61,225 nt of DNA from an uncultured bacterium (GTDB lineage Bacteria > Pseudomonadota > Alphaproteobacteria > Rs-D84): assembly GCA_950096895.1 (NCBI GenBank), contig CATNBF010000005.1, positions 1 through 61,225 of the forward strand. Direction: 5' to 3'. The notes under the pieces were generated by a model. It searched no databases. It was not told where the DNA came from and saw only the letters and a program-made list of their open reading frames with translations. Below are positions 22,894 through 49,347 of this stretch, piece after piece (positions within the stretch are counted from its first letter, which is position 1; every line of letters begins with the position of its first letter). Made by a program: the position numbers and the translations under genes.

Positions 22894-25884
22894 TTACCAC
22901 ATTGCATAGCCTGGGTTACAGATACGTTCACACTTTTTAGTGGCCGGATTCCATTTCATGGTACCTGTTTCGTCCGAATGATTTTCGCAAATCGGGCGGC
23001 ATTCGTTGCCATCTAAAATATACTTTTCGCCACTGTACAGACATGATGCCAATTCACATCCTTGGACATAACTGGATGCCGCCGGTTCACCCAAGATACT
23101 GTAATAATTCCGGCAACGGCCACACGGGGCATTGGGTTCGTCAGATTCGGCCGCAATATCCGTGTAACCCGGATCGCAATAGATCGCAATGCATGGCCCC
23201 CATGTTCCCGATGCCATATCCCATTCGCGCACGCCGACGCCATGTGCCACCGTACAGGATTGTTCGTCTGTGACGCATGCACCGTTCAAGACATGATATC
23301 CAGATTCGCATTCTGTGGCGGTACAATTAGAATAGGTCTTTTTGGCATTATTCCATATGCGAACCGCAGTAATGGTATTCGGCGCGGTGCATTCGATTTC
23401 ATCTGGTTCACACGCCAAACCACCAGTATTGGGGTGATAACCCGCGATACAGTTTGTGATCTTGCAATTGGCATTGGCCATGTATTCCAACGCAAATTCG
23501 CGATCGCATGGTTCACAAACGCCATTGATCAATTCGAAATCCGGCCGGCAGAATTTTTCAACGCACACGCCATCAACGACATCACATGGATTTCCACTGT
23601 CGGATGTTCCGGTAAATGAACATGTGTTTGGATAGAATTCTGTTGAATTAACCGGGTTGGCAATTCCGCCCACAATTGTGTGTCTGTCACAGCGGGCAAA
23701 GCATTCTGTTGGCGCACCGGCATCTTGTGATGATGTCCATTGGCCGTCGCCCAAATCAACGCACGGATTCAAGCCTTGGGTTCCGCCATTGGTTTCAAAA
23801 TCACCACCCGGGCAATAATTGTCGTTCAGACATTGTCTGCATCCCAATCCATCGGCATAATATTGACCAACCGAACATGTTGTTTTTCCTGCGATCCAGT
23901 ACGCATAGATCTTGGTCGATGCGATCCCAGCAAAGGTCAGGGCTTCTTGGCTGAACACAAAATCACCATCTGGGTCGACAATTTGTATACCGGCCCCTTG
24001 GGGTTGGGTATAGTATCCGCCAAAGTCATAACCAATTTTGGTCGGCAATACGGCGATCCCACTGATAGGACTTGTCATTTCAAAATCTTCGTACCAACGT
24101 TTACCATATTCCAGATAAAGGTTTTTGATTCCAGCCGGGGTGCTTGGCTTTTGATCGTCCAATACCACCAGACGGCGTATGTCACGACATACCGGTAAAT
24201 GTGTTTCGATATCGATTTCATCAATATAGCCATTGCGACATGTTACAGTGTATGTACATGTTGGATACGCATCTGGGCTTTCCGCATAAACACGGTCGAC
24301 GTCTGGTTCAACACGAACCGCAAATTCAACATCTTTGACCTGAAGATCACATAATTGATAACATTTACCCAATGAATCACGCGGCACATCGGTTCCGTCG
24401 CCATCCGCCGGGCATTTCACCGGCGCAGCATCTTCACCCGGGCAATACGATCCATCATCACAGATTGGACACGTCAGCCCTTCGACATAATATCCAGGCT
24501 TGGCCCAAACACCAATCAGGTCGGCATAAAAAGTATTTTCATTTGTTGTGCATCCGGATTTGATCACCCCATCACCCGTGCCATAGGCATTGGAAAAGGC
24601 CACGTATTCACAGTCAGTCTTCGGAACTGATGTCCATTGGCCGTCACGGCAATTTTGAGGTATATTTTCAAATATTATTGATCCTGACCATGAGCGTAAT
24701 TTGGTATCACTGAAACAATCTGTAATGGCAATAGAATTTGCCAACGCGTTGGGATACCCTGTGGGGCATACCCGACAGGCCAGCCCATCGGCATAATGTC
24801 CCGCATCTGAAACCACAGAAACCCTGTCTTTGGTACAATCTGTTGGGGTGCAATCCGGACCGACCAAGGTTCCGTTGTATTGCTTTTTATAACTGCATTC
24901 CCCGGGTGTACAGGCCACAGTTGTCTGGTTTATACAACCGGCTGGCAATGCTGGCTCGATCTGATCACCATATTTTTTGAATATCCCAACGCAGCTATCT
25001 TGGGTTGCCAATCCAGTTCCGCCATCACGATAGTCGGCCGGACACGCGTTTAATCCTTTGTCCATAACCGCACTAAAATCCAGATCGCCCCCCGGACAGT
25101 AATTGCCCGCCGTACATGGTTTACATGTCTGTTGTCCCATGGGCAAATATTGACCCGCCGGACAGTGGAATGTATTTAGCTGGCATTCGTTACCGTTCTT
25201 GACGTATCCGTCTGGGCATGTAAAGTCGAGCATCGGGCATAACCCACCGGTATTACAATTTCCGCCATAATACTGGGTTGCGGTATATTGGTATGTGGTG
25301 TTATACGTACATGTTGCATGTTCGGGACATTGTGCGATGTTATTCCCACTGCATGTTACAGAACAAGGTTTAGAGCATGCAGACCCTTGGTTTGCGGTAC
25401 ATTCATTATACGTACCGGTCCAACCGGTACCCAGTGTGTTACACGCCTTGGCCACCTGACAGCATGAACATGTGGATCCGCTGCCCTTGACTTGAAACCC
25501 GGTATTACAGGTGCACGCATAAGACGTTGCAGAACATGAATTCCAGTCAGAACATCCGGTACAGGTTCCTGTGCCGATTTTACCAGTGGAACCATCACTG
25601 CCGTTACCGCCGGTAAATTTACCTTTGCATGATCTTGATCCAGTACCCACACGTTTCCCACCGGTTATTGCGGTTTCTGTGGTACATGTTTCGGTTATGC
25701 TGCTGTTTACCGTGCTGCATAAAATACAGGCATTGCCAACGCCAGCCTTGTTCATATAGTATCCAGAATTACACGCGGTGTATTCTTTATCAGAACATTC
25801 ATACCCCGCGGCATAAAGCGTTGTTGAAAATAACAACAACGCCAAAGTCTTAAAAATATGCAGAAAATGTGGACTTTTTCTCAC
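22894..25884 (-). CDS. large secreted Cys-rich repeat protein (CxxGxYC repeats, InlB B-repeat-like module)
   Basis: Signal peptide; many CPAGQY/CTAGNYCPGG units; LPTKIGYDFGGYYT...IYAYW resembles the Listeria-Bacteroides repeat. Confidence 0.85.
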   Translation of the reverse strand: MRKSPHFLHIFKTLALLLFSTTLYAAGYECSDKEYTACNSGYYMNKAGVGNACILCSTVNSSITETCTTETAITGGKRVGTGSRSCKGKFTGGNGSDGSTGKIGTGTCTGCSDWNSCSATSYACTCNTGFQVKGSGSTCSCCQVAKACNTLGTGWTGTYNECTANQGSACSKPCSVTCSGNNIAQCPEHATCTYNTTYQYTATQYYGGNCNTGGLCPMLDFTCPDGYVKNGNECQLNTFHCPAGQYLPMGQQTCKPCTAGNYCPGGDLDFSAVMDKGLNACPADYRDGGTGLATQDSCVGIFKKYGDQIEPALPAGCINQTTVACTPGECSYKKQYNGTLVGPDCTPTDCTKDRVSVVSDAGHYADGLACRVCPTGYPNALANSIAITDCFSDTKLRSWSGSIIFENIPQNCRDGQWTSVPKTDCEYVAFSNAYGTGDGVIKSGCTTNENTFYADLIGVWAKPGYYVEGLTCPICDDGSYCPGEDAAPVKCPADGDGTDVPRDSLGKCYQLCDLQVKDVEFAVRVEPDVDRVYAESPDAYPTCTYTVTCRNGYIDEIDIETHLPVCRDIRRLVVLDDQKPSTPAGIKNLYLEYGKRWYEDFEMTSPISGIAVLPTKIGYDFGGYYTQPQGAGIQIVDPDGDFVFSQEALTFAGIASTKIYAYWIAGKTTCSVGQYYADGLGCRQCLNDNYCPGGDFETNGGTQGLNPCVDLGDGQWTSSQDAGAPTECFARCDRHTIVGGIANPVNSTEFYPNTCSFTGTSDSGNPCDVVDGVCVEKFCRPDFELINGVCEPCDREFALEYMANANCKITNCIAGYHPNTGGLACEPDEIECTAPNTITAVRIWNNAKKTYSNCTATECESGYHVLNGACVTDEQSCTVAHGVGVREWDMASGTWGPCIAIYCDPGYTDIAAESDEPNAPCGRCRNYYSILGEPAASSYVQGCELASCLYSGEKYILDGNECRPICENHSDETGTMKWNPATKKCERICNPGYAMW
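25252..25434 (-). repeat. 183-bp intragenic cassette shared (inverted) with 47851-48033
   Basis: Manual ungapped alignment gives about 11 mismatches in 183 bp. Confidence 0.92.
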
Positions 25885-25984: not shown

Positions 25985-26061
25985 TGGTGGGTTAGGTAGG
26001 ACTTGAACCCACGACCAAAGCGTTATGAGCGCTCCGCTCTAACCAACTGAGCTACTAACCC
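25985..26061 (-). tRNA. tRNA with CAT anticodon, probably tRNA-Ile2 (lysidine)
   Basis: GGGTTAG/CTAACCC acceptor stem, GAGCG-CTCATAA-CGCTT arm, GGTTCAAGTCC, ACCA; paired 1:72 excludes initiator; Ile2 versus elongator Met is inferred. Confidence 0.9.
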
Positions 26062-26150
26062 ACGCGGGCCATTATACATAAATTATGATGTGATTCAAGA
26101 TAAAAATTTTTTGTCTTTTCTTTTGGTGGTGAATATGGCATGATCCCGTC

Positions 26151-27431
26151 ATGACATCAATGGTACCAATTTTGAATGAAACCCAGATGGCGGCATTTAA
26201 TGCCATTGAAAAATCCCATGGGAATATCTTGATCCTGGGCCAGGCGGGAACCGGAAAATCAACATTTGTAAATTTTTTGAAATCCGCATCCAGCAAGCGC
26301 GTTATTTGCGCATGTCCCACCGCGGTTTCGGCATTGAATATTGGTGGACAAACCATTCATTCGATGTTCCAGATCCAGCCGCGGGATTTCATTATGCCAG
26401 AACTTCTGAAACTAAAGGCCAAGACCCGTAATATTTTAACCGCTGCTGATATTCTGATCATTGATGAAATTTCTATGGTGGCCCCAGATTTATTGGATGC
26501 GATGGACATATTGGCCCGCCAGGCCCGGCGAAACGATGCCCCCATGGGCGGATTACAGATCGTGGCCATTGGGGATCTGTTTCAGTTACCACCGGTGATC
26601 ACGCGTGATGCCATTGCATATTATTCTGGTGAATACGGGCATTCCAACGCGTATTTTTTTGATAGCCATGTATATCGTCGTGCCCATTTTGAAAAATATG
26701 ATTTTGATTTGGTTTATCGCCAGAATGATACGGAATTGTTGGATAATTTGATGCGGTTACGCGATAACGATACAGGGGCCTTGGAATTTTTCAATCGGTG
26801 CCAGATCTCTGATCCCGGCCGTCGGTCAAATGCGGTTATTATTACGCCTTTTCGGGCGGTTGCCGAACGAATAAATGCGGATCGATTGGGGCAAATTAAT
26901 GCGCCCATTGTGGTGTATAACGGTGTTTTATCTGGTACATTTCCCGAACGGGATACGCCGGCCCCGCTGGCCCTGGAATTAAAAATTGGGGCATTGGTTG
27001 TTTTTGTGAAAAATGGGGATAAATGGCATAATGGTTCAATGGGAATCGTGCGCCATTTGGGGGCGCGTGAAATTATAATCGATCTGTTGGGGGATGGCCA
27101 AGAAACGGTGACGGTCAAACCGGAAAAGTGGGAGAAAATCGAATACACCCGGGATGAAAACGATCGGTTAATTGAAAACGAAGTCGGCAGTTTTAAGCAG
27201 TTTCCATTAACCTTGGGTTATGCCATGACGATCCACAAGGCCCAAGGCAAAACATTAGATGCCGTTGTGGTGGATATTTCCCGTGGGGCCTTTGCACATG
27301 GGCAAACATATGTGGCCTTGTCCCGAACCAGATCGGCGGCAGATATGCATATAACGGCCCCGCTGCGCCCACGTGATGTTATTTTTGATGGGCGCGTTTT
27401 GGACTTTGTTTCCGGTGACGCAGATCGTTAA
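26151..27431 (+). CDS. PIF1-like SF1B DNA helicase
   Basis: GQAGTGKST, IIDEISMV, GDLFQLPPV, QFPLTLGYAMTIHKAQGKT, YVALSR. Confidence 0.92.
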   Translation: MTSMVPILNETQMAAFNAIEKSHGNILILGQAGTGKSTFVNFLKSASSKRVICACPTAVSALNIGGQTIHSMFQIQPRDFIMPELLKLKAKTRNILTAADILIIDEISMVAPDLLDAMDILARQARRNDAPMGGLQIVAIGDLFQLPPVITRDAIAYYSGEYGHSNAYFFDSHVYRRAHFEKYDFDLVYRQNDTELLDNLMRLRDNDTGALEFFNRCQISDPGRRSNAVIITPFRAVAERINADRLGQINAPIVVYNGVLSGTFPERDTPAPLALELKIGALVVFVKNGDKWHNGSMGIVRHLGAREIIIDLLGDGQETVTVKPEKWEKIEYTRDENDRLIENEVGSFKQFPLTLGYAMTIHKAQGKTLDAVVVDISRGAFAHGQTYVALSRTRSAADMHITAPLRPRDVIFDGRVLDFVSGDADR

Positions 27432-28461
27432 CCATGTGGTCATAAACCGCCTGGCCGGATTGACGCATTTTTTCAAAATCAACCGTTGGACCAGATACCA
27501 ATTCGGCCACCGATGGAATTTCCCCGGCGGTAATGGTGTTGTGTGCTGCGGCAACAATGGCGTTACGTTCGGCATCAAAGACCACGTGACCATTTGGTGT
27601 TAATTGCTTGTCCCAGTTGGGATCGATACGCAATTGACATGTATCATGTTCATCCCCGCCATCGATGATCAAGTTGCTGGCGATGATCAAATTTCCTGAG
27701 GCGACTGACATATACATGGGGGGATAGTTTTTTGTTTTTGTGAAAAACCAATCGGACATATTATTATTCAGATCCATCATATAATCAGATATTGATGCAA
27801 AGCTTAATGTATTAAATCGCACATGATGCAGTGGGGTTATAGGGGCATGCTGGATCACCAAGACATTTTGCTGGATCTGGGTAATTTCTGTGTTTGAAAA
27901 TCCCATGTCGCGCATCTGGTCGGCCATGTAATCTGATACTTGGCGAATAATCGCGGCCCCATGTGAATGTGCCCAAAGGCAAATCCGTCGCATATTTGTC
28001 ACCACAGAATTAATATCACGACGATGCCCGGTGGCGTTAACCAGGCGCGGCTTGAAAATCAAATTAAATGCCCGTTGGACAATATTGGGGATTGGTTCAT
28101 TGGCGTTCATATTGGCCAGCTTGCATTCATTCGCCGCTTTTAGAGTGACGCGATCACCCGCCCGACGAAAGATATTAACGCGGTCTAAAAATGTGTTTCG
28201 ATCCCCAAACATATAATATGCCGAATAAATCTGGACATCATGAATGTTGGCGTTTTTCAAAATGCTTTCCATCATGGATGCATAGTTATTGGCAACACGG
28301 GGAAAATCTGTACAATCGCCACCAAACAAAATCATCGCCGGTTGATTAATCGCGATGCGTGTCACATTTGTCACGCCATAGGGATTGAACGCTGATTTTT
28401 GTACACGACGGATAAGGCGAAGGTGACTGGGGCAATAGGGCTTAGATGGCGTTTCAGACAT
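27379..28461 (-). CDS. hypothetical alpha/beta-hydrolase-like protein, paralog 1
   Basis: LFGGDCT, AHSHGA nucleophile-elbow-like motif, EHD; collinear with the next gene. Confidence 0.7.
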   Translation of the reverse strand: MSETPSKPYCPSHLRLIRRVQKSAFNPYGVTNVTRIAINQPAMILFGGDCTDFPRVANNYASMMESILKNANIHDVQIYSAYYMFGDRNTFLDRVNIFRRAGDRVTLKAANECKLANMNANEPIPNIVQRAFNLIFKPRLVNATGHRRDINSVVTNMRRICLWAHSHGAAIIRQVSDYMADQMRDMGFSNTEITQIQQNVLVIQHAPITPLHHVRFNTLSFASISDYMMDLNNNMSDWFFTKTKNYPPMYMSVASGNLIIASNLIIDGGDEHDTCQLRIDPNWDKQLTPNGHVVFDAERNAIVAAAHNTITAGEIPSVAELVSGPTVDFEKMRQSGQAVYDHMVNDLRHRKQSPKRAHQK

Positions 28462-28463: not shown

Positions 28464-29546
28464 TTATTTTCCACGTTTTCTGTTGATGCGAATATCATTT
28501 AACATGATTTGATAAAACCTGGTGCCATTTTTGCGTAACGTGTCAAAGTCCACACTGGGGCCATCCAACATTTCCCGCACCGATGGCAGCTTGGATCCAT
28601 CAATGGCACTTTTGACAGCGGTGATAATGGCATTGCATTCGGTATCGAAAACCAGTTTGCCTTCATCGGTTAATGTTTGATATTCTGCAGAATTCTGGGC
28701 CAAGTATCGGGCATCGTGTTCGCGCGTGTAATCCGGACGAAATTGACCCGTGGTAATCAGGTTTCCCAATCTGTTACCAAAATACATTGGGGTAACATTG
28801 GCGGCATTCGTGGATAGATAATCTGACATATGATTTACATTTTCCATGACGGTATCACTGCACGATGCAAAGTTTATGTGATAAAAGGTATTATAAAACA
28901 TAGGGGCGGTTGGGGCATGGCCGATCACCAACAGATTTTTACACACCAAATCGATTTCGTATTTGGTAAATCCCATCGCAGACATTTCTTGACGCATATA
29001 ATCCCCCATGTAATGGATAACGGCCCCACCATGCGAATGTGTCCATATACGTAACCGGCGCATATATTTCAGAATTGTATCCATATCTCTTAATCGATTA
29101 TCACGGGTGATCAAACGTGGCCGGATAAAGATATTAAATGTACGGATGGCGGTGTGTGGAATGGGTTCATTGACACACATCCGCGCCAGTTTTAATTCCA
29201 GACGATCATTATCTGGGGGATAATAGCTAAGTTTAATCGTATATCCCATCTGGCGAAAAACATTTGCCCGATCCAGTCCTGGGATTCGATCCCCAAAGTT
29301 ATAGTGGGCAGAATATAAATCAAAATCCCGTACGTTATTGGTGTACAGTATTTCTTGGATCAATGATGCGTAATAATTTGCATCGCGTGAACGAACCGTT
29401 GCCCCACCACCCAATAGCAGTAAAGACGGCCGCGTCAATGGGATTCTGGATATAGTTTGTGCACCATGGGGATACGCATCCGAACGGGGAACACGTTTGA
29501 TTATTCTAATTGAACTGGGGCAATAATCGGTATTTGATTGTGTCAT
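28464..29546 (-). CDS. hypothetical alpha/beta-hydrolase-like protein, paralog 2
   Basis: LLGGGAT, THSHGG, EHD; same 360-aa length as its neighbour. Confidence 0.7.
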   Translation of the reverse strand: MTQSNTDYCPSSIRIIKRVPRSDAYPHGAQTISRIPLTRPSLLLLGGGATVRSRDANYYASLIQEILYTNNVRDFDLYSAHYNFGDRIPGLDRANVFRQMGYTIKLSYYPPDNDRLELKLARMCVNEPIPHTAIRTFNIFIRPRLITRDNRLRDMDTILKYMRRLRIWTHSHGGAVIHYMGDYMRQEMSAMGFTKYEIDLVCKNLLVIGHAPTAPMFYNTFYHINFASCSDTVMENVNHMSDYLSTNAANVTPMYFGNRLGNLITTGQFRPDYTREHDARYLAQNSAEYQTLTDEGKLVFDTECNAIITAVKSAIDGSKLPSVREMLDGPSVDFDTLRKNGTRFYQIMLNDIRINRKRGK

Positions 29547-29932
29547 GATAATTTCTTTTCCATCAAAATGGCATCAATACCGTCATAGTATTTTGGCCGT
29601 CGCCCGATTTCACAATATCCATTTTGTTCGTACAGGGCGCGGGCCGGGGTATTGTTTTCGGCCACTTCTAAAAATACTTTTTTTATGCCACCGCGCCGCA
29701 ATTCGTTTTCAACGATTCCCAACATGGCCGCGGCAATACCGGTCCGACGCGCATTGGGCGCAACGCCGATGGTGATAATTTCTGCTTCGTCCAGGACAGG
29801 GCGATAAACGATAAATCCATTATCACTGGCGATGATTTCACAACCACTGTTTTTCAATTCCGCAAATTCATTCGCATCCCATGGGCGATGGGGAAAGCAT
29901 TGGGCGTGCAGATGGGCAATTTTATCGAACAT
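29543..29932 (-). CDS. rimI: RimI-like GNAT acetyltransferase
   Basis: EAEIITIGVAPNARRTGIA, FLEVAENNTPARALY, GRRPKYY; near tsaB. Confidence 0.82.
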   Translation of the reverse strand: MFDKIAHLHAQCFPHRPWDANEFAELKNSGCEIIASDNGFIVYRPVLDEAEIITIGVAPNARRTGIAAAMLGIVENELRRGGIKKVFLEVAENNTPARALYEQNGYCEIGRRPKYYDGIDAILMEKKLS

Positions 29933-29943
29933 GTTTAATCCTT

Positions 29944-30549
29944 TTAATGCACGCGCGTAGATAATGCCGCAATAATCCGTTGGGCAAATGCGTTATCATC
30001 GCTGTTGATGGTGTCATAGTATTTGGGAAAGGGACTGATCCCCAGTTTATTTTTTATCGATGCGCGGCAATATAAATCGTCGATTTGGGCATTGTATTCT
30101 TCGGTGGCAACAATCTGGATCGGCCGTGTAATCAGACGATACGTGTTGATAAAGTTAGGGCCATTTGTTTCACGGGAAAATTTTGCCCCCGCACGCATTT
30201 TATCAATGGCGTTAATAACCAAGTCCTGTTTTTTTTGCGACAACGGCTGGGTTAAATTCATGGCAACCGATGCCTTTTCCATGCAATTAAAAACGGCCTG
30301 GGCAATTTGACCAACATCATAAAAGTGCACTGGCATTGTGCGCAGGATTAGATTCTTGGCAATATTCAAAACATATGTTTCACGCGGGAATAATCCATCT
30401 GTGGGCATATATCGTGTGGCGGTTATGTTTAATCCCCGAATTGTCAACACATGCTGGGTCATAATGTCATCGGCAATCCGCACCGCACGATTAGATGGTG
30501 TTTGATACAGCGCATCCAAATCAGACATGAATTTGGCAAGCGTGCTCAT
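29944..30549 (-). CDS. hypothetical protein with two internal repeats
   Basis: Open 201-aa ORF overlapping the tsaB stop; halves end IAQAVFNCM and FAQRIIAAL. Confidence 0.65.
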   Translation of the reverse strand: MSTLAKFMSDLDALYQTPSNRAVRIADDIMTQHVLTIRGLNITATRYMPTDGLFPRETYVLNIAKNLILRTMPVHFYDVGQIAQAVFNCMEKASVAMNLTQPLSQKKQDLVINAIDKMRAGAKFSRETNGPNFINTYRLITRPIQIVATEEYNAQIDDLYCRASIKNKLGISPFPKYYDTINSDDNAFAQRIIAALSTRVH

Positions 30550-31085
30550 TTCTTATTCTCTTCGGCATAGCTGGGGCGCAGATACATGGGAACCGCCGGT
30601 TCAATGGCGTGGGAATCTAATTTTTTCTGGACAATGTCTGGGCCATATCTTAAATCAAATGGTCGATGGCCAACGGTGCGGGGACATTCCATCTGACGCG
30701 TTTCTAATTCATCAATGGTCATAACGCATGGATCGGTCTTTGGGGATGCAACAAAGAAATCCCCACGTCCAGAATCAATCGCAACAAAGGCATCTGGGGT
30801 CGCGGCCAAATACAGTTCAAATGCATTAATCGGCACAACAGGAATATTCAGCCCCATCCCCAATCCCTTGGCATAGGCGATGCCCAAACGGATTCCGGTA
30901 AAGCTGCCGGGGCCAACAACGACGCCCACCGCGGTCAGATCACAAAATTTGACCCCACATTCATTCATGAATTTTTCGCATTCGATGGGCAATGCCACCG
31001 ATTGCTTTTCCACGGAAATAGATTTGTAATGGTTCCCCAAAACAAATTCTAAACCTGGGCCAGATGTATTAATAATCAGAATCAT
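30546..31085 (-). CDS. tsaB: tRNA threonylcarbamoyladenosine biosynthesis protein TsaB
   Basis: MILIINTS, VVGPGSFTGIRLG, IDSGRG, PMYLRPS. Confidence 0.92.
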   Translation of the reverse strand: MILIINTSGPGLEFVLGNHYKSISVEKQSVALPIECEKFMNECGVKFCDLTAVGVVVGPGSFTGIRLGIAYAKGLGMGLNIPVVPINAFELYLAATPDAFVAIDSGRGDFFVASPKTDPCVMTIDELETRQMECPRTVGHRPFDLRYGPDIVQKKLDSHAIEPAVPMYLRPSYAEENKK

Positions 31086-31376
31086 TTATGAACGCTGTTC
31101 CTGGTTAAGGTAATTGAACACTTGCTGGGCCAACTGTGTATTGTATTCCGTTGCCTCGATATGTTTGGTTAAATCAGACGTTGTCATTTCGTATTCATGT
31201 TCCCGTTTGGCACAAAAATACATCCGCATTGTCCGTTTGACCGAAATGCAATACTTGTCGTTGTTCAAACAAAACTTATACGAAATACCCCCGATATGAA
31301 ACAGGTAAGTGTTCTTGATCCGATGCGGGCCGGATATAATTTCGTTAAAGATTAAGATTTTATCCTTGTTATTCAT
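31086..31376 (-). CDS. small hypothetical protein
   Basis: ATG 31376 just after the upstream stop; ends LAQQVFNYL. Confidence 0.55.
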   Translation of the reverse strand: MNNKDKILIFNEIISGPHRIKNTYLFHIGGISYKFCLNNDKYCISVKRTMRMYFCAKREHEYEMTTSDLTKHIEATEYNTQLAQQVFNYLNQEQRS

Positions 31377-31380
31377 ACTA

Positions 31381-31665: not shown

Positions 31666-31728
31666 TTTTTACTCTATTTATATAACATATTAAATTATTA
31701 TTCAAAATCTTTAATTTGTCAATAATTA

Positions 31729-33808: not shown

Positions 33809-33837
33809 TTTTTTGCCTTTCCATTCATTAATATTCA

Positions 33838-40495: not shown

Positions 40496-40547
40496 ATGGG
40501 GTATTGTGCGGCTTGCATATGGGGGGAAATTTTGGTATAATTTTCAT

Positions 40548-41693
40548 ATGCAAATATCCAGACGCAGTCTTTTAAGAATAACAGGGATTGGGGTTTTATT
40601 GATTGGCAATTTGCCCCGTGTGGCGTTTGCGGCACGAAATTCACTGAAATCTATGCGCACAGGGGTTCAGCCTGGAAATAAAAGCCGCCTGGTGATTGAA
40701 ACCGCGTTGCGTCCGTCATACACGCTAAGCTATCTGGAAAATCAGCTGGTGGTTAGTATTGCCAATACACCCGCCAATCAATCGGTGCGGGCCAAATTGG
40801 CAGATTCCGCATTGGTAAAATCTGTATCCCAGGTTCAACACGGCGATCGTTTGCAAATTATTGCCAACTTGCGTCAATCAATCGGCCAAATTCCCAAGAA
40901 TCAAATTATGATCTTGGAACCTAATGGGGATAATGATTATCGGTTGGTGTTGGATTTCTCGGTTGGGAATCCCATTACGATTGCCGCTGACACCACAGTG
41001 GCCAAGCCTGCGGCGGAAAAGCATGTGATTGTCATTGATGCCGGCCACGGGGGCAAGGATCCTGGCTGTATCGGCAAAGGGGGAACCAAAGAAAAAACTA
41101 TCGTTTTGGCGGTGGCAAAGAAATTGAAAAAGCAATTAGATGCGGCCGGATTCAAAACATATTTAACACGCAGTACGGATGAATACTTAAAATTGGGTGA
41201 ACGTGCGGCGATTGCCGAACGGCGCAAGGCGGATTTATTCTTGTCGTTGCATGCCAATGCAAACCCCAGCCGTGCGGTCAAGGGCTTTTCAATTTATACA
41301 TTATCAGAAAAGGCATCTGACGAAGAAGCCCGCAAATTGGCAGAGGCAGAAAATGCCGCAGATAAAATCGGGGTCAAGGGATTTGGTGGCTTTGAAAAAG
41401 AAGTGCGTGCGGCATTGTCTTCGTTGCAACAACATGCGGTCGCAGAAATGAGTGAAGAATACGCCACAAGCTGTTCTAAATCTTTCCGCAGTGCCAGTAT
41501 CACCGCGCAACCCGGGCCCGGCGTGCGCCATGCCCCATTTGCGGTCTTGCGGTCAACGGTGCCTGGGGCGTTATTAGAACTGGGGCATTTATCAAATGCC
41601 GCCGAAGAAAAATTATTATCATCCGATGCGCATCAAAACAAACTGGTTAATGCGATTGTGAAATCGGTTAAAAACTATAACTTTGACGTATAA
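40548..41693 (+). CDS. amiC: N-acetylmuramoyl-L-alanine amidase with Tat signal and AMIN domain
   Basis: SRRSLL, IDAGHGGKDPG, SLHANA, LLELGHLSN. Confidence 0.88.
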   Translation: MQISRRSLLRITGIGVLLIGNLPRVAFAARNSLKSMRTGVQPGNKSRLVIETALRPSYTLSYLENQLVVSIANTPANQSVRAKLADSALVKSVSQVQHGDRLQIIANLRQSIGQIPKNQIMILEPNGDNDYRLVLDFSVGNPITIAADTTVAKPAAEKHVIVIDAGHGGKDPGCIGKGGTKEKTIVLAVAKKLKKQLDAAGFKTYLTRSTDEYLKLGERAAIAERRKADLFLSLHANANPSRAVKGFSIYTLSEKASDEEARKLAEAENAADKIGVKGFGGFEKEVRAALSSLQQHAVAEMSEEYATSCSKSFRSASITAQPGPGVRHAPFAVLRSTVPGALLELGHLSNAAEEKLLSSDAHQNKLVNAIVKSVKNYNFDV

Positions 41694-41796
41694 AAGACCG
41701 GGTCAAAATGCCCCGATAATTTTATTCATTCATCCCTATGGCGTGGGTGAATGCTGGTGTGATAGAATAAGGGGTGCAACCAAAAGGAATCATAAA

Positions 41797-41973
41797 ATGC
41801 CATTGATCAAGGGATGTTCGCGCCGCGCCATTTCTGAAAACATTCGAACCGAAACCCGCGCAGGTCGACCCCATAAACAGGCGGTCGCCATCGCATTATC
41901 CATTGCCGACAAAAACGCCGCGAAATGCAAGGCACGTACGCCGAAAACCAAATCCACGAAATCGTCGCGATAA
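41797..41973 (+). CDS. small basic phage-type protein
   Basis: MPLIKGCSRRAISENIRTE...RPHKQAVAIALSIA resembles a small protein seen near phage head genes. Confidence 0.65.
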   Translation: MPLIKGCSRRAISENIRTETRAGRPHKQAVAIALSIADKNAAKCKARTPKTKSTKSSR

Positions 41974-42001
41974 TCCGCGTGTCCGGGCATGTGGACGTTC
42001 C

Positions 42002-42492
42002 TTACATTGTAATGGCACCGCCCGTGTTATTGATATGAAACGTGTTGCCAAATTCAAACTCGTCCGGGCGGCACCATTTGTCACATCCGGATTGAATGGA
42101 TATTTTCATAAGATTTTCGGCGATGTCAAAATTTAATTCACAATCTTCGAATTCGCGACGGTCCATGTTACGCCGCCGATACTCTGCAATGGCAAGACCG
42201 GATGCATGTTTGTCATTATCAATATGTAATTTACCCCACATGATACACACCGAATGAAACGGTTTGCCGTGTTCCATTGTCATTTGAAAAAGCATACGTT
42301 ATCGTGACAACTTGAAATCTTTATTTTGACCGGTTCACAGCCCTCATCAACTATTTCTTGGCGGATGTCATCATAATAATAACATGATTCCCATTTGTTT
42401 TCTTGTAAAAACAGATTATCTTTTGCACTACAAAAATCAGGGAAAACAGTGCAGAATACAAAACAAATTATTAAACCACGTTTATATCGCAT
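42002..42492 (-). pseudogene. secreted hypothetical protein, frameshifted
   Basis: Signal-peptide ORF 42280-42492 and ORF 42002-42295 join if the T5 run (42287-42291) were T6. Confidence 0.6.
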
Positions 42493-42663
42493 TATTGCCC
42501 CCGTTTGATTATATTATAACCCTTGCATAAAATGTTCATATGTCCAAAGATTAGTTGGGCATTATACTTTTTTATTGATTGATTCATGATGCCGCCGCAT
42601 AATTTATCCCATGAAGTTTATTAAAGCGTTATTTGGAAATTTTTTCCTGGGGTAAGTGATAAA

Positions 42664-43038
42664 ATGCTAAAAAAAATTTTTCTTATATTTCTTGTGCTTT
42701 TAAATATTAATCCAGTGGGTGCGGACACGTCCCAAAATATATTACGTCTGCAAACGGATACGTATTTTATAGAGATTCATGGCCGTGCAGATAATGATTT
42801 TACCTATTATTCATGGAAGAAGAAAAGTTACAATAAAGATAAACCGGATTTAATTCTATTAAATGGCGCGATGGATTATGACGGCAGTGGGGGAAATATA
42901 TCATATACGTTCCGGAACGGTACCTATACATACGAAATATATCAACATGTCATAGGTACCGAATTTACACCCCCTTATTCGTTAAGCGTTTATGATAATA
43001 ATAAATTAATTTTGAATCAGCCTGCACACCCCCTTTAA
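42664..43038 (+). CDS. secreted hypothetical protein
   Basis: Signal peptide; YYSW...PDLILLNG...DGSGGN.SYTFRNGTYTY. Confidence 0.7.
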   Translation: MLKKIFLIFLVLLNINPVGADTSQNILRLQTDTYFIEIHGRADNDFTYYSWKKKSYNKDKPDLILLNGAMDYDGSGGNISYTFRNGTYTYEIYQHVIGTEFTPPYSLSVYDNNKLILNQPAHPL

Positions 43039-43040
43039 TA

Positions 43041-43949
43041 TTAATAGAAATAATAATAGTTATTGTTAAACATTTCCCATTCATAGTTTCGGCGATTTAT
43101 TAATCCTGTTGAAACTTTGCCATTGCTGCGATTCCATGCTTTCCAAGCTTTTTCTTGTGTGGGATAAATATTACTAACATAATTTTTATCATTTATATAT
43201 TTTACAATTGTAGAATTTTTGAAATTTCCAGCCCCAATATTGAATGCAAGTGATACCAATGCATCATATTGATTCTGCGATAGGGGGTGCGTAATATTCT
43301 CTTGAACCACACGCTGCGCTTTCGCGATATCATTCATTAATAATTCCGTTGCCTGTTTTTCGGTTAAGCCTTTGGAGAAATCTTCGCCCGGCTTGATTAA
43401 ATGCCCGTATCCGATTGTCGCCCCTTTGGGCAAAGGACCATCGGGCAGAATCGGAAATTTGGTTCTGTCGTCATAAATTATATGTTTGTCGTTTTGCTTA
43501 ACGCATCCTTCTTTGTCTTTTAACCATTCAATACCGCGGTCACTTATTTTCATATCTTTTGCTTCCTTTTCTTGTGGTTCATTTGTTTTTGTCATGTATT
43601 TTTTGCTTTGCAGGGTGCGGCCATCTTCGTCGACAATATCTTGGGTTATATAACATTGACAGTTGGGATGGACCGGCATCTCTGGAATGTCTGCAACATC
43701 AAAAAAGACTGCGCCGTCACGTGCACCGCATTTTTCGCACATGTTGTGGCCATTTTCGGCGTGCCAAATCCACACGCGCATAACTTTGCGAAAGTCGGGC
43801 AGGTCCAAATCATATGTTTCTAAAAATCGCTTTTGAACATAACCGCCTGGTTCCAGAACGTGAACGGGAATGCGTTCATCGGTGACAACAAAATCTTCGA
43901 TATCAAAATCGTACCCTAATATTTCAAAGGATTCCCCGTATTCGTCCAA
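43041..43949 (-). CDS. MuF/minor-head-like domain fused to GH24 phage lysozyme (5' region decayed)
   Basis: CEKCGARDG...PVHPNCQC; then KDKEG, TIGYGH, QYDALVSLAFNIG, GLINRRNYE. Confidence 0.8.
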   Translation of the reverse strand: MDEYGESFEILGYDFDIEDFVVTDERIPVHVLEPGGYVQKRFLETYDLDLPDFRKVMRVWIWHAENGHNMCEKCGARDGAVFFDVADIPEMPVHPNCQCYITQDIVDEDGRTLQSKKYMTKTNEPQEKEAKDMKISDRGIEWLKDKEGCVKQNDKHIIYDDRTKFPILPDGPLPKGATIGYGHLIKPGEDFSKGLTEKQATELLMNDIAKAQRVVQENITHPLSQNQYDALVSLAFNIGAGNFKNSTIVKYINDKNYVSNIYPTQEKAWKAWNRSNGKVSTGLINRRNYEWEMFNNNYYYFY

Positions 43950-44381
43950 GATTTCTTTTCATCCTTGTATTCTTGAAATTTGCTGTCAATTTTGTTTTGG
44001 GCATCGATAAACTGGGGGGGCGGGTCATATCATATTCCGGATCCACCATGCGGCCTGTGGCATCGTATGTTATTTGGCCAGGCTACAGCATCCGCATATA
44101 TTCCTCAACACGTCGGACGATCGTGTCATGGTTGGGGTTCATTTTATTGGCATAGGCGTCTGATTGCATTAATCGCGCCACTAAAGTCTGGGATTTTTGG
44201 CATTGTTTACTCTCCGTCTGGGTGTTAAAAAAAACGCCCACATGGGGCGCATAATAAAAAGGGAAACGGCGGGAAATCCCGCCGTAATCATGAATTTATC
44301 ATAACACAAAACGGCATAAAAATCAATAGAAAACATAAACCCCTTGCAAAAAGAAACAAAACCTGTATAATGCCCATCCGT

Positions 44382-44471
44382 GGAGACGTGGCAGAGTGGT
44401 TGAATGCGCGCGACTCGAAATCGTGTATACGGGCAACCGTATCGGGGGTTCAAATCCCTCCGTCTCCGCCA
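44382..44471 (+). tRNA. tRNA-Ser(CGA)
   Basis: GGAGACG/CGTCTCC, CGCGA-CTCGAAA-TCGTG, long variable arm, CCA; promoter TTGCAA-16-TATAAT at 44344-44371. Confidence 0.96.
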
Positions 44472-44743
44472 TTATTATAAAATGCGCCAACGGTGTATTT
44501 TATAATAATGCTGGCACAGGGGATGCAGAACACCCGATACGGGGGTTCACTATGAGTAATCGAAACCGAGTGATAACGAAGGTTGAGAGCTAACGAATGC
44601 CGCGCATGCACCATGAAATGGTGACAAGTGACTACGACTAGGCGAGACAAGTGAAGCATAGTCGAGCCGTTAGGAGTGCTGCGCAGGAACCATGAAATGG
44701 TGCCCAGCGAAATCCCTCCGTCTCCGCCATTATTATAAAATGC
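44452..44743 (+). mobile_element. 258-bp non-coding tRNA-associated insert bounded by 34-bp direct repeats
   Basis: AAATCCCTCCGTCTCCGCCATTATTATAAAATGC at 44452-44485 and 44710-44743. Confidence 0.75.
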
Positions 44744-44801
44744 CCATGGATATGGCATTTTAATTTTATAATTTATATATTCATTATATCGGTGGTAAAA
44801 A

Positions 44802-45146
44802 ATGAAAACGTTTAACGAACAGGTTTACGATATTGTGGCGCGCATCCCATCCGGGCGCGTGGCGACGTTTGGGCAAATTGCCCGTATGATTGGGCGGCCA
44901 CGGATGGCACGCTTTGTCGGGTACGCATCGAATAACAAGGCGTCATGGCATCTGCCGTGGCATCGCGTGGTGTTCAAGGATGGATCCCTGTGCGGTGCGG
45001 GATTCTTTGAACAACAATTAAAAGCCCTGAAAGCCGAAGGTGTCAAGTTCGACGCGGATCACAAAGTCATCATGGAACAATTTCAATGGGACCCGGACCG
45101 TGACGGCATGCCGATGGACATTCGGGATTTACCGTTGGTGTTTTAA
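44802..45146 (+). CDS. alkyltransferase-like (ATL/YbaZ) MGMT family protein
   Basis: IPSGRVATFGQIA, ARFVG, LPWHRVV (Trp replaces the catalytic Cys). Confidence 0.9.
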   Translation: MKTFNEQVYDIVARIPSGRVATFGQIARMIGRPRMARFVGYASNNKASWHLPWHRVVFKDGSLCGAGFFEQQLKALKAEGVKFDADHKVIMEQFQWDPDRDGMPMDIRDLPLVF

Positions 45147-46296
45147 GAGACGCGAACGCGCCGGTTGACCCGCATGGCAACCAGGGTGGCCCCTAGGTAA
45201 ATCAACACCAGTCCAATGGTATACCACGTTAACCCCAGGGGAATGTTGGGCAAAAACGCAACACCAATCAATCCGACGAACATCACAATGCGCCCCAAAT
45301 CAATCGAAAATTCGCGCAGGGTCAGGAATTCTTTTTCATATGATGGGATAACGCGGAACAACGTATAAGTGATGGGTTCGTACACCAATTTTAATAATTC
45401 ATGACCCAATGTAAAGCAAAGGCAGTAAATCAAGAAGTTTAATTCGGTTAAGTTCATCAAGGCCCATAAACAGATTCCCAACAGAATCAGACCAATCATA
45501 AAAATAGAGCGAAAATGCTTCTGCGACCCAAATCGGCCGAATAAAAATCGAAAGACAATCAATCCGAGCATCAATCCTGAATTAATCAGTCCCAGACTAA
45601 GATCCGTTTTGAATAAATAGACGATTAGCATGGTCTGGACAACGGTCAAAACCATGATAGACCCATATAAAAATTCCCCCAGCAAAAACAGGCTAATCGC
45701 CCGATGATATTTGGACTTTTTATACGCGGCATAAAATTCTCGTATATTAAACACCGGACACTGGATCGGGGTGGGTGGTTCCTGAATCCATGTGGATATC
45801 AACATTATCCCCAGGCATACAATCAAAATGACAATCGCCATCTGGGATACGAATATTGGCCCAGCAAGAATCTGCACAGTGCCGGAAAACATACCTTGAC
45901 CAGTGATCCAAAAATAGTGCGGTAACTGCTGAACTTTATTTGGTTCTTTATCAGGGATGTCTGCATATAGTTAAGTCCCAACGCTATCAACCCGATTGCC
46001 AATCCATAGACGGTACCCATAATCCAAACAAAGTTCAAGGCATCTGTTCCCGTCACGCCAATCACCGCCATCAATCCCATGCAAATAATTAATCCCCACC
46101 GATAAATCCGGGCGATGGATACGGATTTGAAAAAACAACATGCGAAATAGAATGACACAAAAACGAATATAGAAAAAAAGATATTATAGATGGTCACCGA
46201 AATAATAGGATTGGCATAGATACGCATAATATACGATGTCATAAATACGTTAAGAAACGAATCAGGAATCCAGCTTAGGGACTTTAGCGCAACCAA
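45143..46296 (-). pseudogene. MFS-like transporter, frameshifted
   Basis: Two multi-TM ORFs join as ...GQYSYPQMAIV... if the C3 run (45844-45846) were C4. Confidence 0.7.
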
Positions 46297-46357
46297 CGGC
46301 CAAAATTTTTACCAAGTTGTCCAAGTTTCTTCATTTTTATTCTCGTTTGTTTTTTTC

Positions 46358-47374
46358 TTATATTATTCCGGCGCGACTAAGGGCGGCAAATGCCTTTTTC
46401 ATTAATGTTGATGTGGGATACACACCCAAATCGTCGGGCGATACAAAGACACCGTCGATGCCGGGCGCGTCACATTCAATAACATGCAATTCCAAGGTCA
46501 ACTTAAAATGTGTAAAGGTATGCATAACGCAAATGCCGGTGTCTGTTCCCGGTGTGTCAATGACCGGGGTACCGTCGTCGGTCCAGGGGGCTTCGTACAA
46601 TCCGGCCAACAGGCCACGTCCCGTCCGCCGGCGGATAAAGATTTGACCACCATGGTTTTTGATGATGTATGCCCGACCGATTTTTTCTTTCTTTTGTAAT
46701 TTAAGAATAACTGGAATACGGTCAACCGTACCATCCTGGTGCGTCATACAATGATTTCGTAATGGGCATGTATCGCATGATGGATTTTTTGGTGTACATA
46801 CAGTTGCACCAAAGTCCATAATCGCCGATGCATAATCGGCCGGGCGATCCCGACTGGTTAATGTATCTGCGGCGGCACGAATTTGATCCATGATTGTTGC
46901 CACAGGCACATCCCATCCATTCAGACGACATATGACACGCACCACATTCCCATCAACCACAGGTTCAGGTTGGTTGAACGCCAATGACAAAATACTGGCC
47001 GCGGTATACGGACCAATTCCCGGCATGCGGATTAATGCGTCACGTGTGGATGGAAATTGTCCATCCAAATCATGGGCAATCATTTGGGCGGTGCGATGTA
47101 ACGATCGGGCGCGTGAATAATATCCCAATCCAGCCCACAGCGAATAAACATATTCATCCGACGCATTGGCCAAATCTTGTATTGTTGGACACGCATCCAT
47201 AAACCGTGAAAAATACGATTCTACGGTGGCAACTGTTGTCTGTTGCAGCATGAATTCAGAAACCAACACATGATATGGGTTGGGATGCGCACCGCCCCGA
47301 TGTCGCCATGGTAAATCACGGCCACATTTATCGAACCAGTCCAGTAATAATTGTGTTTCTGGGATTAATGACAT
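46358..47374 (-). CDS. mutY: A/G-specific adenine glycosylase
   Basis: RDLPWR, VSEFMLQQT, WAGLGYYSRAR, PGIGPYTA, VDGNVVRV, CTPKNPSCDTCPLRNHC. Confidence 0.95.
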   Translation of the reverse strand: MSLIPETQLLLDWFDKCGRDLPWRHRGGAHPNPYHVLVSEFMLQQTTVATVESYFSRFMDACPTIQDLANASDEYVYSLWAGLGYYSRARSLHRTAQMIAHDLDGQFPSTRDALIRMPGIGPYTAASILSLAFNQPEPVVDGNVVRVICRLNGWDVPVATIMDQIRAAADTLTSRDRPADYASAIMDFGATVCTPKNPSCDTCPLRNHCMTHQDGTVDRIPVILKLQKKEKIGRAYIIKNHGGQIFIRRRTGRGLLAGLYEAPWTDDGTPVIDTPGTDTGICVMHTFTHFKLTLELHVIECDAPGIDGVFVSPDDLGVYPTSTLMKKAFAALSRAGII

Positions 47375-47532
47375 GAATTAAATCATGGGTAAAAGTCGCA
47401 TAAATGTCAATAAAAAATAGAAATAAATCCCCAATCAATAATCCCAAGGAATACAAAAGAATAAAAGCCCAAAATCATGCTTGTAAAAAATTGATGAATA
47501 CTTTATAATCCGTGGTGTTGCGGGAAATTTAC

Positions 47533-47657
47533 CTATGCCTAATCCAAAGGGACGTTTTTCTGGCATAGTTTTTGAACATTAAAAATCCCGGATTTCTGCA
47601 CTTTTTTATCCCCCGTACTATGCCTAATCTAAACGTCGGTTTTTTATGCGCAATAAT
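47533..47657 (+). repeat. CTATGCC three-arm palindromic leader element, copy C
   Basis: Near-identical to the reverse complement of 11556-11678; follows TTGTAA-17-TATAAT (47481-47509); arm 3 contains the ATG at 47620. Confidence 0.9.
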
Positions 47658-49347
47658 CATGACCACGGCATCGGCATATGCCACAGGATACACATGTCTC
47701 ACATCAAAAAGATACACATCATGCAATACCGGTTATTACATGACGGGTGGAACCGGGGCCGGAAACGCATGTACCGCGTGTCCCGCGGGATGCACGTGTT
47801 CTGATAATACAACACCCACGTGTTGCAGCACGTCAAAGTCATGCGCCAGCCTGGGTACCGGTTGGACCGGTACGTATAATGAATGTACTGGAACCCAAGG
47901 ATCTGCATGCTCTAAACCTTGTTCCGTAACATGCAGTGGGAATAACACCGCACAATGTCCCGCAAATGCCAATTGTACGTATAACACCACATACCAATAT
48001 ACCGCAACCCAGTATTATGGCGGAAATTGTAATGCGTCTGGCACATGCCCAATGTCAACATTTACATGCAATTCTGGATTTCACCCAGATGGGAACACCT
48101 GTGTTTCAAATACCAAGCCGTGTTCTGGCAATTTAACCGATGCCACAGGCGGAAACATCGTATGGAATGGATCAAAATGGGATTATTCTGGGTGCACAAA
48201 ATCATGTGACGGGAATGGTATTGCACATGGTCTGGCGTATTTCGATGGTGATGCATGGGGCACATGTCGTCCAGAATCAACAACATACGGATGTCATTGG
48301 GGATATTACAACGACAATGGACAATCATGTAAAACATGCCCCGCAGGATCTTGGTGTTGGAATTATACGCAGCCATGTCCGGCGGGCTATTTCTGTCCAG
48401 TGGGGATATATGATCCCACATACGATGGATATAATGATAAATATAAATGCCCCCCAGGATATACCAGTGATGCCGGCGCAAAAGGTTCTGATAAATGTTA
48501 TAAATCATGTACCCGTTCATGCACACCCCAGACATGTCCCGCCAACGCCACATGTACACACCAAGAAACATCCCCAACATCTGGGATCGAGTATAATGGC
48601 GGTACATGCGATGCCCCGGCGTCGGCATGCCCCATGACATTTACGTGCAATCCCGGCTATTACGGCAGCAGTGCGAACAACGACACATCTTGTGCCGATT
48701 GTGGCCCCGGCAATTATTGTACCGGCGGCACCCATCGCGCCACATGCGAATCAACCATCCCAGATAACGCACCAGAACCACGTAAAATTAGCACCCTATA
48801 TAACGGCAATTGGGATGATCGTGATAAACATGGCACAAAAATCAGTGATTACATCTGTGATTGGTATTTTGACGATGAAACACGTACAGAATATTTACAA
48901 CAGGCCCGATGTTCGGCCGGCCCCGAAGGGTACAAATACACACATTACTATTGGTGCCGCCCGGGATATTATGCATCGGGGCCATTGACATGGGGAAACT
49001 GGTACACGGAATGTCTTGCGTGCACAAATAAACCTGATCATGCACACTTTACCAATTATGGAACCCCGTCTGCCGCAAGTGCAGTCGAAGACAATTGCCC
49101 ATGGGCATGTGATGCGGGATATGGTAAAACATCAAATAATACATGTGCCCAAATGTGTATGTCGGGAATTACATACTTAAAAAGTAATGGAATCAGTGTG
49201 CCGTTATACGCCACCCCACAAACCAGTCCCGCCAACAATGTTCAATTACCGGGTCAAAGTATCTGTTATGGGTCACTGGCAACTGGGGGCGGGGCGGATG
49301 CGATCAATATCCAATTTAATGGCACAATATATCATTCGATACAATAA
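47620..49347 (+). CDS. secreted Cys-rich repeat surface protein
   Basis: MPNLNVGFLCAIIMTTASAYA signal peptide; CPAGSWC/CPAGYFCPVG/CGPGNYCTGG repeats; distinct C-terminal domain. Confidence 0.85.
   Translation: MPNLNVGFLCAIIMTTASAYATGYTCLTSKRYTSCNTGYYMTGGTGAGNACTACPAGCTCSDNTTPTCCSTSKSCASLGTGWTGTYNECTGTQGSACSKPCSVTCSGNNTAQCPANANCTYNTTYQYTATQYYGGNCNASGTCPMSTFTCNSGFHPDGNTCVSNTKPCSGNLTDATGGNIVWNGSKWDYSGCTKSCDGNGIAHGLAYFDGDAWGTCRPESTTYGCHWGYYNDNGQSCKTCPAGSWCWNYTQPCPAGYFCPVGIYDPTYDGYNDKYKCPPGYTSDAGAKGSDKCYKSCTRSCTPQTCPANATCTHQETSPTSGIEYNGGTCDAPASACPMTFTCNPGYYGSSANNDTSCADCGPGNYCTGGTHRATCESTIPDNAPEPRKISTLYNGNWDDRDKHGTKISDYICDWYFDDETRTEYLQQARCSAGPEGYKYTHYYWCRPGYYASGPLTWGNWYTECLACTNKPDHAHFTNYGTPSAASAVEDNCPWACDAGYGKTSNNTCAQMCMSGITYLKSNGISVPLYATPQTSPANNVQLPGQSICYGSLATGGGADAINIQFNGTIYHSIQ
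47851..48033 (+). repeat. 183-bp intragenic cassette shared (inverted) with 25252-25434
   Basis: Encodes LGTGWTGTYNEC...TATQYYGGNCN in both genes. Confidence 0.92.

Follow-up and report, generated by a model that had tools for sequence, protein, structure and literature searches.

How do two genes that differ over most of their length come to share 183 bp almost letter for letter? The question is raised by contig CATNBF010000005.1 of assembly GCA_950096895.1, a short-read metagenome-assembled genome (MAG) of an uncultured alphaproteobacterium that is 93% complete and comprises 998,742 bp in 41 contigs. The window analysed here is this whole contig with its 61,225 nucleotides. In opposite orientation it carries two genes, called gene A and gene B in the following, whose products consist to 8-9% of cysteine and start alike: behind the signal peptide come AGYxC..(K)xYTxCNxGYYM and GxGNAC. 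Each contains one copy of the shared stretch, the cassette. A sequence-only reading of this DNA had suggested module shuffling or an inversion switch, and a repertoire for antigenic variation built by gene conversion. We favour a recent ectopic (non-allelic) gene-conversion tract between two modules that were already homologous and diverged, and give this reading a probability of roughly three in four.

The two copies agree in 172 of 183 nucleotides (94.0%), including a perfect run of 60 nt at the 3' end of the core, and are read in frame 0 in both genes. They are the core of an inverted repeat whose 234-nt arms (25216-25449 and 47836-48069) are 86% complementary and enclose 22,386 nt; this pair is one of only three inverted pairs of at least 40 nt which the repeat search detects within the window. 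The 11 differences are clustered, five of them falling within 12 nt (codons 188-191). A blastn search with the tract, covering all 41 contigs of the genome, finds these two copies and no further one. Outside the tract, the start pattern, from the signal to GxGNAC, is all that can be aligned convincingly between gene A and gene B. In these descriptive points, i.e. the coordinates, an identity of about 94% that includes synonymous sites, inverted copies some 22 kb apart and a likeness elsewhere limited to the start, the sequence-only reading was correct.

The edges of the tract are sharp. Among degenerate codons for identical amino acids the same codon is used in 50 of 54 cases in the tract, where 22.9 would be expected from codon usage alone, and in 15 of 29 cases in those parts of the flanks that can be aligned (tract versus flanks, Fisher p = 3.6e-5). 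By the method of Nei and Gojobori (NG86) the tract has 0.118 synonymous (dS) and 0.047 nonsynonymous (dN) substitutions per site; in the flanks the proportion of synonymous differences (pS) is 0.84, which is saturated. The tract is also young in relation to speciation: four housekeeping orthologues of this genome and G104, the closest species scored for dS, give values of 1.15-1.9. As a control for constraint at the protein level, 185,579 species genomes were scanned for DNA encoding the core peptide motif of the module. The same module is present in two other Alphaproteobacteria MAGs (L055, L056), where 41-45 of 61 residues are kept, together with only 123-129 of 183 nt (67-70%) and 17-24 same codons of 40-44. 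Because these genomes keep the peptide and not the DNA, selection on the protein does not explain the identity of the tract.

The homology of the two modules extends without gaps beyond the tract (A135-237 and B78-180). In gene B the flanks of the tract resemble those of L056 and of the protein P0016 rather than those of gene A, therefore both modules predate the exchange. The module as such comes and goes between species. Among full-length homologues P0005 is closest to gene B (56% identity), and gene B differs from it in architecture by one additional module at aa 84-180, the one with the cassette. The sister species G104 has an orthologue of gene A with 1380 aa at the same locus, between an HI0933-like gene and tRNA-Met/PIF1, and this orthologue agrees with gene A at the start (VRKS.RFLH.F) and, at 51% identity, over the last 424 aa, but the part in between is unrelated and does not contain the cassette module. 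At the locus of gene B in G104 the genes for MutY and peroxiredoxin (Prx) are 237 bp apart, gene B and its leader both being missing. Searching for the cassette module in G104, G013, G015 and G006 gave no match, and in G017 weak matches only.

Taken as a mechanism, homologous recombination would have copied the central 61 codons of one module of ~95 residues onto the diverged module of the other gene, in either direction. RecA is encoded in the genome, and the exchange was presumably RecA-mediated and non-reciprocal. On a longer scale the family keeps the N-terminal handle and one of two C-terminal domains, with the modules in the middle being exchanged, gained and lost quickly. "Module shuffling" is thus a fair description on the evolutionary scale. 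What stands of the earlier proposal is a real and recent module exchange by gene conversion, for which the sharp edges, the dS of 0.12, the saturated flanks and the module turnover speak. The term "repertoire" finds little to refer to: blastn and tblastn reveal three large family members in the genome, the third (contig C4, 7222-10056) being complete as well, and no silent or truncated donors. The positions of all features are given in Table 1.

Table 1. Features of the two loci and of the leader units. Positions without a prefix refer to the window; C-numbers denote other contigs of the same genome.
Feature	Position	Strand	Remarks
Gene A	22894..25884	-	open reading frame and translation; 996 aa, exported, Cys-rich (8.2% Cys), modular
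Cassette copy A	25252..25434	-	in gene A, codons 151-211
tRNA-Met and promoter-like site	25985..26098	-	directly upstream of gene A; tRNA 25985-26061; TTGAAT-16-TATAAT at 26098-26071
Gene B promoter-like site	47481..47509	+	TTGTAA-17-TATAAT; conserved promoter of the genome-wide leader units
Gene B CTATGCC leader	47533..47640	+	segment 1 CTATGCCTAATCCAAAGGGACG; short inverted arm ..CTGGCATAG; core AAAAATCCCGGATTTCTGCACTTTTTTATCCCCC ("forward"); segment 3 CTATGCCTAATCTAAACGTCGG and T-run
Gene B	47572..49347	+	591-aa open reading frame from TTG 47572; exported, Cys-rich (9.0% Cys), modular
Cassette copy B	47851..48033	+	in gene B, codons 94-154; centre of a ~97-aa module (aa 84-180)
Glycosyltransferase (GT6) gene and leader	leader 39370-39527, gene 39614-40495		Pfam Glyco_transf_6, E 2.6e-22; CTATGCC unit in front
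Third leader unit	11586-11730, gene region 10644-11730	-	11586-11677 99% identical over 92 nt to the gene B leader
Multi-copy exported family, examples	C8:42564-43081, C9:26566-27085, C21:6474-6976, C36:241-743, C17 and C40 contig ends

Several points weigh against a conversion between gene A and gene B. One tract among three large members is an event and no demonstrated ongoing process, and the evidence comes from one short-read MAG together with short public contigs. The MAG breaks at repeats, so further copies of the tract may be unassembled. The cluster of differences at codons 188-191 could reflect a patchy conversion or a third-party donor. It is worth considering whether both genes received the segment separately from outside, from another strain or species or from an unassembled paralogue. 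Such an origin would suit a family which is modular and patchy between species, a gene B which is itself a lineage-specific arrival, the clustered differences and an assembly that breaks at family repeats. Neither the genome nor five relatives contain a third copy, however (four without any match, G017 with the weak ones mentioned), the closest modules found outside are only 67-70% identical in their DNA, and among outside proteins the one nearest to gene B has 61% identity. We regard an outside donor as unlikely.

Selection acting on the nucleotides themselves, be it for an embedded RNA, a regulatory site or an overlapping gene, could in principle also hold two copies together, and there is one structure in the tract that might invite such an explanation, a perfect 8-bp palindrome at the 5' edge. 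The RNA fold of the tract has a z-score of 0.03, with 91 of 200 shuffled sequences folding at least as well, no Rfam family matches at its gathering score, and the DNA is not conserved in other species, which makes this explanation highly improbable. As to the palindrome itself (47855-47873), it has a 3-nt loop (GTACCGGT-TGG-ACCGGTAC) and encodes GTGWTGT; the matching place in gene A also carries it, and it lies outside the minimum-energy RNA fold.

In a short-read MAG of 41 contigs, many of which end in repeats, a single real copy might furthermore have been written into two genes by the assembler. We give this almost no weight. The copies differ at 11 sites, stand in frame and lie inside diverged homologous modules, and contigs of independent studies contain both the A-type and the B-type version. 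Public runs with DNA of gene B number 19, come from 12 studies and bear, with few exceptions, the label mouse gut metagenome. For comparison Logan contigs from 22 runs were used, no RNA run being among those listed; four samples (X1-X4) from four studies were examined over 29401-49400. Five diagnostic B-type letters between 47889 and 47925 are unchanged in X1 and X4; X2 has both types (A-type with a depth of 7.5 of 14) and X3 only the A-type. That both versions are distinct in independent samples makes an assembly artefact less likely. We also considered whether the A-type letters on cassette B in X2 and X3 represent conversions, but most simply they are contigs of gene A aligned at a likeness of at least 90%. 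One A-type letter, 47973 T>A, is among the differences listed for X2, X3 and X4 and is unexplained.

The inverted arrangement could suggest a quite different function, because a reciprocal crossover at the cassettes would flip 22.4 kb and swap the C-terminal regions between two promoters, the leader-controlled one of gene B and the plain one of gene A. That only one of the genes has the CTATGCC leader was seen correctly from the sequence: upstream of gene A there is merely a degenerate remnant of the leader core, and gene A itself has, as read from its sequence, a Shine-Dalgarno sequence (SD; GAGAGGAAG) and a GTG start, with no CTATGCC motifs. The geometry of an in-frame crossover exists, given the inverted copies in frame 0, the 60-nt perfect run and the presence of RecA, and the resulting chimeras would be new proteins, as the C-terminal domains of gene A and gene B differ. 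The interval to be inverted, on the other hand, harbours about 20 housekeeping genes. It includes a PIF1-like helicase, two unknown paralogues and genes for GNAT, TsaB-like, Lon, Obg and rubrerythrin proteins, the tmRNA, which is of the permuted alpha-type, a prfB-like release factor gene, the GT6 glycosyltransferase, an amidase, a lysozyme, tRNA-Ser and MutY. Neither cassette has a recombinase gene beside it; the closest such gene (53775-55025) is situated in an apparent integrated element.

Synteny was compared in five genomes of the same genus, and in the four testable ones (G017 is left out of this count) the order is that of the window. G013 and G002 have both the adjacency of HI0933 and PIF1 and the orientation of PIF1 versus Prx in common with the window, G003 and G006 the orientation of PIF1 versus Prx. 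The comparison shows that the window has the ancestral gene order. As a test of the inversion it is weak, since the position of gene B beside Prx is not established in these genomes. In the four samples none of 6 joints and of the 24 of 116 loose ends listed is at 47851 or 48033, where the contigs are not longer than 2.8 kb. Two joints, 39422->47617 and 39384->47504, were discarded as artefacts of 31-mer repeats that the leader copies share (side 31 and 24). Scanning metagenome contigs for gene B gave 18 pattern matches, one of them a distant locus, and no strain-level synteny could be derived from them. Thus, of the proposed switch the geometry stands and the switching is not supported, in view of the housekeeping interval, the collinear relatives and the absence of a junction among those listed, however weak the last two tests are; we consider a switch very improbable. 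Hardly better, although still improbable to a slightly lesser degree, is a broader version in which the cassette is a working handle for RecA-dependent exchange, reciprocal or repeatedly non-reciprocal, which moves modules and C-terminal domains between the constitutive gene A and the leader-controlled gene B. If true, this would mean antigenic variation without silent cassettes on top of multi-locus phase variation in a bacterium of ~1 Mb that probably depends on a partner. On the reading preferred here, gene B probably lies inverted to gene A as a consequence of the place where it arrived, rather than as part of a switch.

Comparison with known inversion systems leads in the same direction. 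In the sap locus of Campylobacter fetus homologous S-layer genes lie in opposite orientation and RecA-dependent inversion occurs by way of their conserved regions, ~600 bp of homology at the 5' ends, and the invertible piece consists of sap genes only and carries a single promoter. The likeness to sap is that inverted paralogous genes share a stretch where a crossover would invert the DNA and change the coding region behind a promoter. In contrast to sap, the homology here is internal and measures 183 bp, both genes have promoter-like signals of their own, the 22 kb between them are taken up by housekeeping genes, and neither the short contigs nor the collinear relatives show an inverted form. 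One feature of shufflons and other inversion switches is present, inverted repeats that bound a segment (234 nt at 86%, with the core of 183 nt at 94%); a dedicated adjoining recombinase with its sites and a segment made up of variable genes only were not found.

Gene conversion between gene A and gene B, the reading preferred here, has closer counterparts. By analogy, the cassette behaves as expected of ordinary ectopic conversion among surface-protein paralogues, a process known, for genes that each have their own promoter, from the neisserial opa genes and from erp and vsp of Borrelia. As in these cases a short tract with sharp edges, synonymous sites included, is homogenised between complete paralogues, each with its own upstream signals, and the products are exported, fast-evolving proteins from a bacterium associated with a host. 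Differences to opa and erp/vsp are that there is one tract only, that it concerns an internal module rather than a 5' or 3' handle, and that the family is an unnamed cysteine-rich modular one in an uncultured alphaproteobacterium with a reduced genome.

Segmental conversion in the strict sense is represented by msp2/p44 of Anaplasma, vlsE of Borrelia and pilE/pilS of Neisseria, where one expression site is supplied by many silent truncated donors. Common to these systems and to the locus studied here is that homologous recombination moves pieces between members of a surface-protein family. Unlike in msp2, vlsE and pilE, gene A and gene B are both complete open reading frames (ORFs) with own upstream signals, and blastn and tblastn of this MAG, at its 93% completeness, find no silent, promoterless or truncated cassette donors. 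Furthermore, those systems have conserved flanks and a hypervariable centre, whereas here a centre of 94% identity lies between saturated flanks. With two defining features tested and both absent, the locus is not a member of the expression-site/silent-cassette group. Programmed antigenic variation by segmental gene conversion is named as a general class by Vink et al. 2012, as quoted in PMC11868660.

Judged by their sequences, gene A and gene B belong to a large and unnamed family of modular cysteine-rich exported proteins from uncultured gut Alphaproteobacteria. In the library used, gene A has 920 representatives at E<=1e-3 and 240 at 1e-30 or better, often 2000-4500 aa long, most of which match aa 668-996. 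This part (~330 aa, ending CNPGYAMW) is a widely conserved C-terminal domain, here called type A. Gene B ends in an unrelated type B domain of ~70 aa (...PLY...CYG...YHSIQ), and its relatives are fewer: 34 in a set of 5.8 billion proteins, the few named ones being hypothetical proteins of "MAG: Alphaproteobacteria bacterium" or "bacterium". Reading through the homologues shows a common plan, in which the N-terminal handle is followed by strings of cysteine-rich modules and by either of the two C-terminal domains, which are unrelated to each other. In this plan the cassette occupies the middle of one module, of the type C.K.C...C.....CP..A.C.......GTQYYGG.C. At the start of gene A the signal MRKSPHFLHIFKTLALLLFSTTLYA precedes AGYEC...YTACNSGYYM. 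A surface location, disulfide bonds and the role of either C-terminal domain are inferences. The genome also encodes small cysteine-rich exported proteins that form a family of their own.

It had been proposed from the sequence that the CxxGxYC repeats recall eukaryotic GCC2/GCC3 and VSP-like surface antigens. Long extracellular strings of small beta-rich, disulfide-laddered units with CxxGxY/CxxC spacing are what the family would have in common with the eukaryotic TNFR and ephrin-receptor repeats (PF07699 Ephrin_rec_like, formerly GCC2_GCC3, and PF23091 TNFR_ELAPOR1_6th) as well as with the variant surface proteins (VSPs) of Giardia. In contrast to members of PF07699 and PF23091, however, none of the proteins reaches a curated threshold. 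Pfam gives no family at E<=1 for the products of gene A and gene B (P0001, P0002), and the best scores of 8 homologues are 27.4 bits for PF23091 against a cut-off of 33.2 and 17.8 for PF07699 against 23.1. By sequence, neither protein has a match in the PDB at E<=0.1. Feature scores in the ESM Atlas are 0.75-0.77, the best (0.77) belonging to the C-terminal domain of gene A and being a lead only.

An AlphaFold model of gene B calculated with 20 homologues has a mean local confidence (pLDDT) of 61 and a global score (pTM) of 0.30. The cassette region reaches 41-59, and the C-terminal domain is the sole part modelled with confidence (pLDDT 83-92). Foldseek finds no match of this model in the PDB at E<=1e-3 (best E 2.3e-3), and a wide VIA search has no Z>=5. 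The VIA scores nearest to that are 4.9 for a cysteine-rich domain (CRD) of OX40 and 4.6 for the CRD of EphB2, both over ~50 residues in aa 253-390 and thus outside the cassette, on a model of pLDDT 61. For residues 510-591 the whole-protein search lists no VIA match; the domain alone was not folded or searched. A faint likeness to GCC2/GCC3 therefore remains of the proposal, below threshold in Pfam, Foldseek, the Atlas and VIA, and family membership does not; the several lines that suggest a resemblance to TNFR and ephrin-receptor repeats are weak but point the same way. Neither the "Enterousia" literature nor PMC12306168 describes the family in the parts to which the search was confined, and the words "cysteine" and "surface" are absent from the latter. 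The family is unnamed and has no solved relative or Pfam model, yet it is large, with some members exceeding 4000 aa.

Reduced genomes and a probably partner-dependent life are attributed to the order Rs-D84 in PMC12306168, and all of 30 relatives drawn from the genus and the order have 0.6-1.1 Mb. Ectopic conversion as a mechanism is textbook biology; the family and its carriers are little known, and the tract offers a dated and clean example of gene conversion at the level of modules in a little-known family of cysteine-rich exported proteins. A role in the evasion of an immune system or of a partner may be envisaged. The fast turnover of modules, the plain gene beside a switch-controlled gene and the leader-controlled genes for a glycosyltransferase and a choline-kinase-like protein together point to a strong pressure on the cell surface.

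The leader in front of gene B is part of a genome-wide system with 27 promoter-linked sites. The CTATGCC motif occurs 51 times in this genome, 49 times in G104, 1-5 times in 15 others and not at all in the remaining 104 of 121 genomes, so that G104 is the only other species of 120 searched with the motif in bulk. A unit consists of a strong promoter, a 15-6-15 palindromic site (TATGCCTAATCYAAA, a spacer and the inverted arm) and, at a distance of 84-88 nt, another site with a spacer complementary to that of the first; this distance is seen in 23 of 24 units by pattern, and for the 24th the distance is 85 nt by coordinates. Depending on the locus, the core of ~50 nt has one or the other orientation. 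In four "type G" units with reversed core, to which C1+35743 can be added by eye, the core provides a start codon and (V/M)(Q/R)K(S/M)GIF in frame with the signal peptide, and a clear SD (GGGGGAT or GGAGG) precedes the start in four of the five. Nine units with forward core, among them that of gene B, have by eye no SD and no conserved reading frames. In one of its orientations the core of "type C" units brings a GC hairpin in front of a T-run. Within segment 3 of the gene B leader, whose forward core lacks an SD, ATG 47620 opens MPNLNVGFLCAIIMTTASAYA; as start of gene B this codon (575 aa) is more likely than TTG 47572.

For the GT6 leader there is evidence that the core flips as DNA at the same locus: one X2 contig (1146 nt, depth 5.94) on 39528-40576 carries the 88 bp of 39440-39527 on the opposite strand. 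For the leader of gene B (47549-47618) no inverted contig is among the matches listed for X1-X4. Candidates for the flipping are five tyrosine recombinases of the Phage_integrase family and two serine recombinases of the Resolvase family, all above the cut-off; one candidate (C17:4626-5123) lies ~1 kb from a leader unit. The element may instead act as a structured RNA leader, as a long inverted-repeat stem followed by a U-run appears in every fold of the leader RNA. Short DNA switches of gut bacteria that invert near surface genes, the invertons, are known from PhaseFinder-type work; two reports on the subject are "Intragenic DNA inversions expand bacterial coding capacity" (10.1101/2023.03.11.532203) and PMC11892184. 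With invertons the leader of gene B, not the cassette, shares the segment flanked by inverted repeats between promoter and gene, the two orientations across loci, candidate recombinases encoded in the genome and a control of genes that concern the cell surface. What sets the element apart from invertons is its very small size, with 84-88 nt from one site to the other, its presence at 27 or more loci in a 1-Mb genome, and that it carries an SD with start codon or a terminator hairpin, not a promoter.

The third leader unit precedes a choline/aminoglycoside-kinase-like gene (Pfam APH, Choline_kinase), which is split into ORFs of 86 and 207 aa just after a run of six G at ~11279-11284; one G fewer would join the frames. 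This could be a licA-like gene with phase variation by slipped strands, a pseudogene or a sequencing error. In a multi-copy exported family (mature start AEMVNVEYIHNAIKQKWDI) the leader and 300-500 nt of the 5' coding sequence are 82-91% identical between loci. Many contigs end in repeats of this family, which shows mosaic sharing and is probably under-assembled.

Some observations concern the surroundings of the two genes. Two adjacent paralogues of 360 aa (27379-28461 and 28464-29546, minus strand) have similar starts (…YCPSS.R.I.RV..S...P.G…) and no Pfam family at E<=1e-5. Within gene B, the sole X2 contig covering 48273 (depth 5.5) lacks 14 nt, which would cause a frameshift; there is no repeat at this place, and the gap may represent a broken gene in the X2 strain or a contig error. 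The MutY gene was considered as an island marker and dropped, as it is unmatched at E<=1e-20 in five relatives yet present in G104. The region 42074-44074 has a low GC content (37.5%) and a phage-type lysozyme gene (43041-43949) by tRNA-Ser 44382-44471. It is covered by contigs in X1 and X4 and almost uncovered in X2 and X3, the uncovered parts (42-44 kb) being no evidence on the inversion, and may be a strain-variable island. Finally, an integrated element seems to occupy 53775-60495, where a block of low GC content (36-40%) follows a tyrosine recombinase gene (Phage_integrase match at 54438-54941) and extends up to tRNA-Ser 60407-60495.

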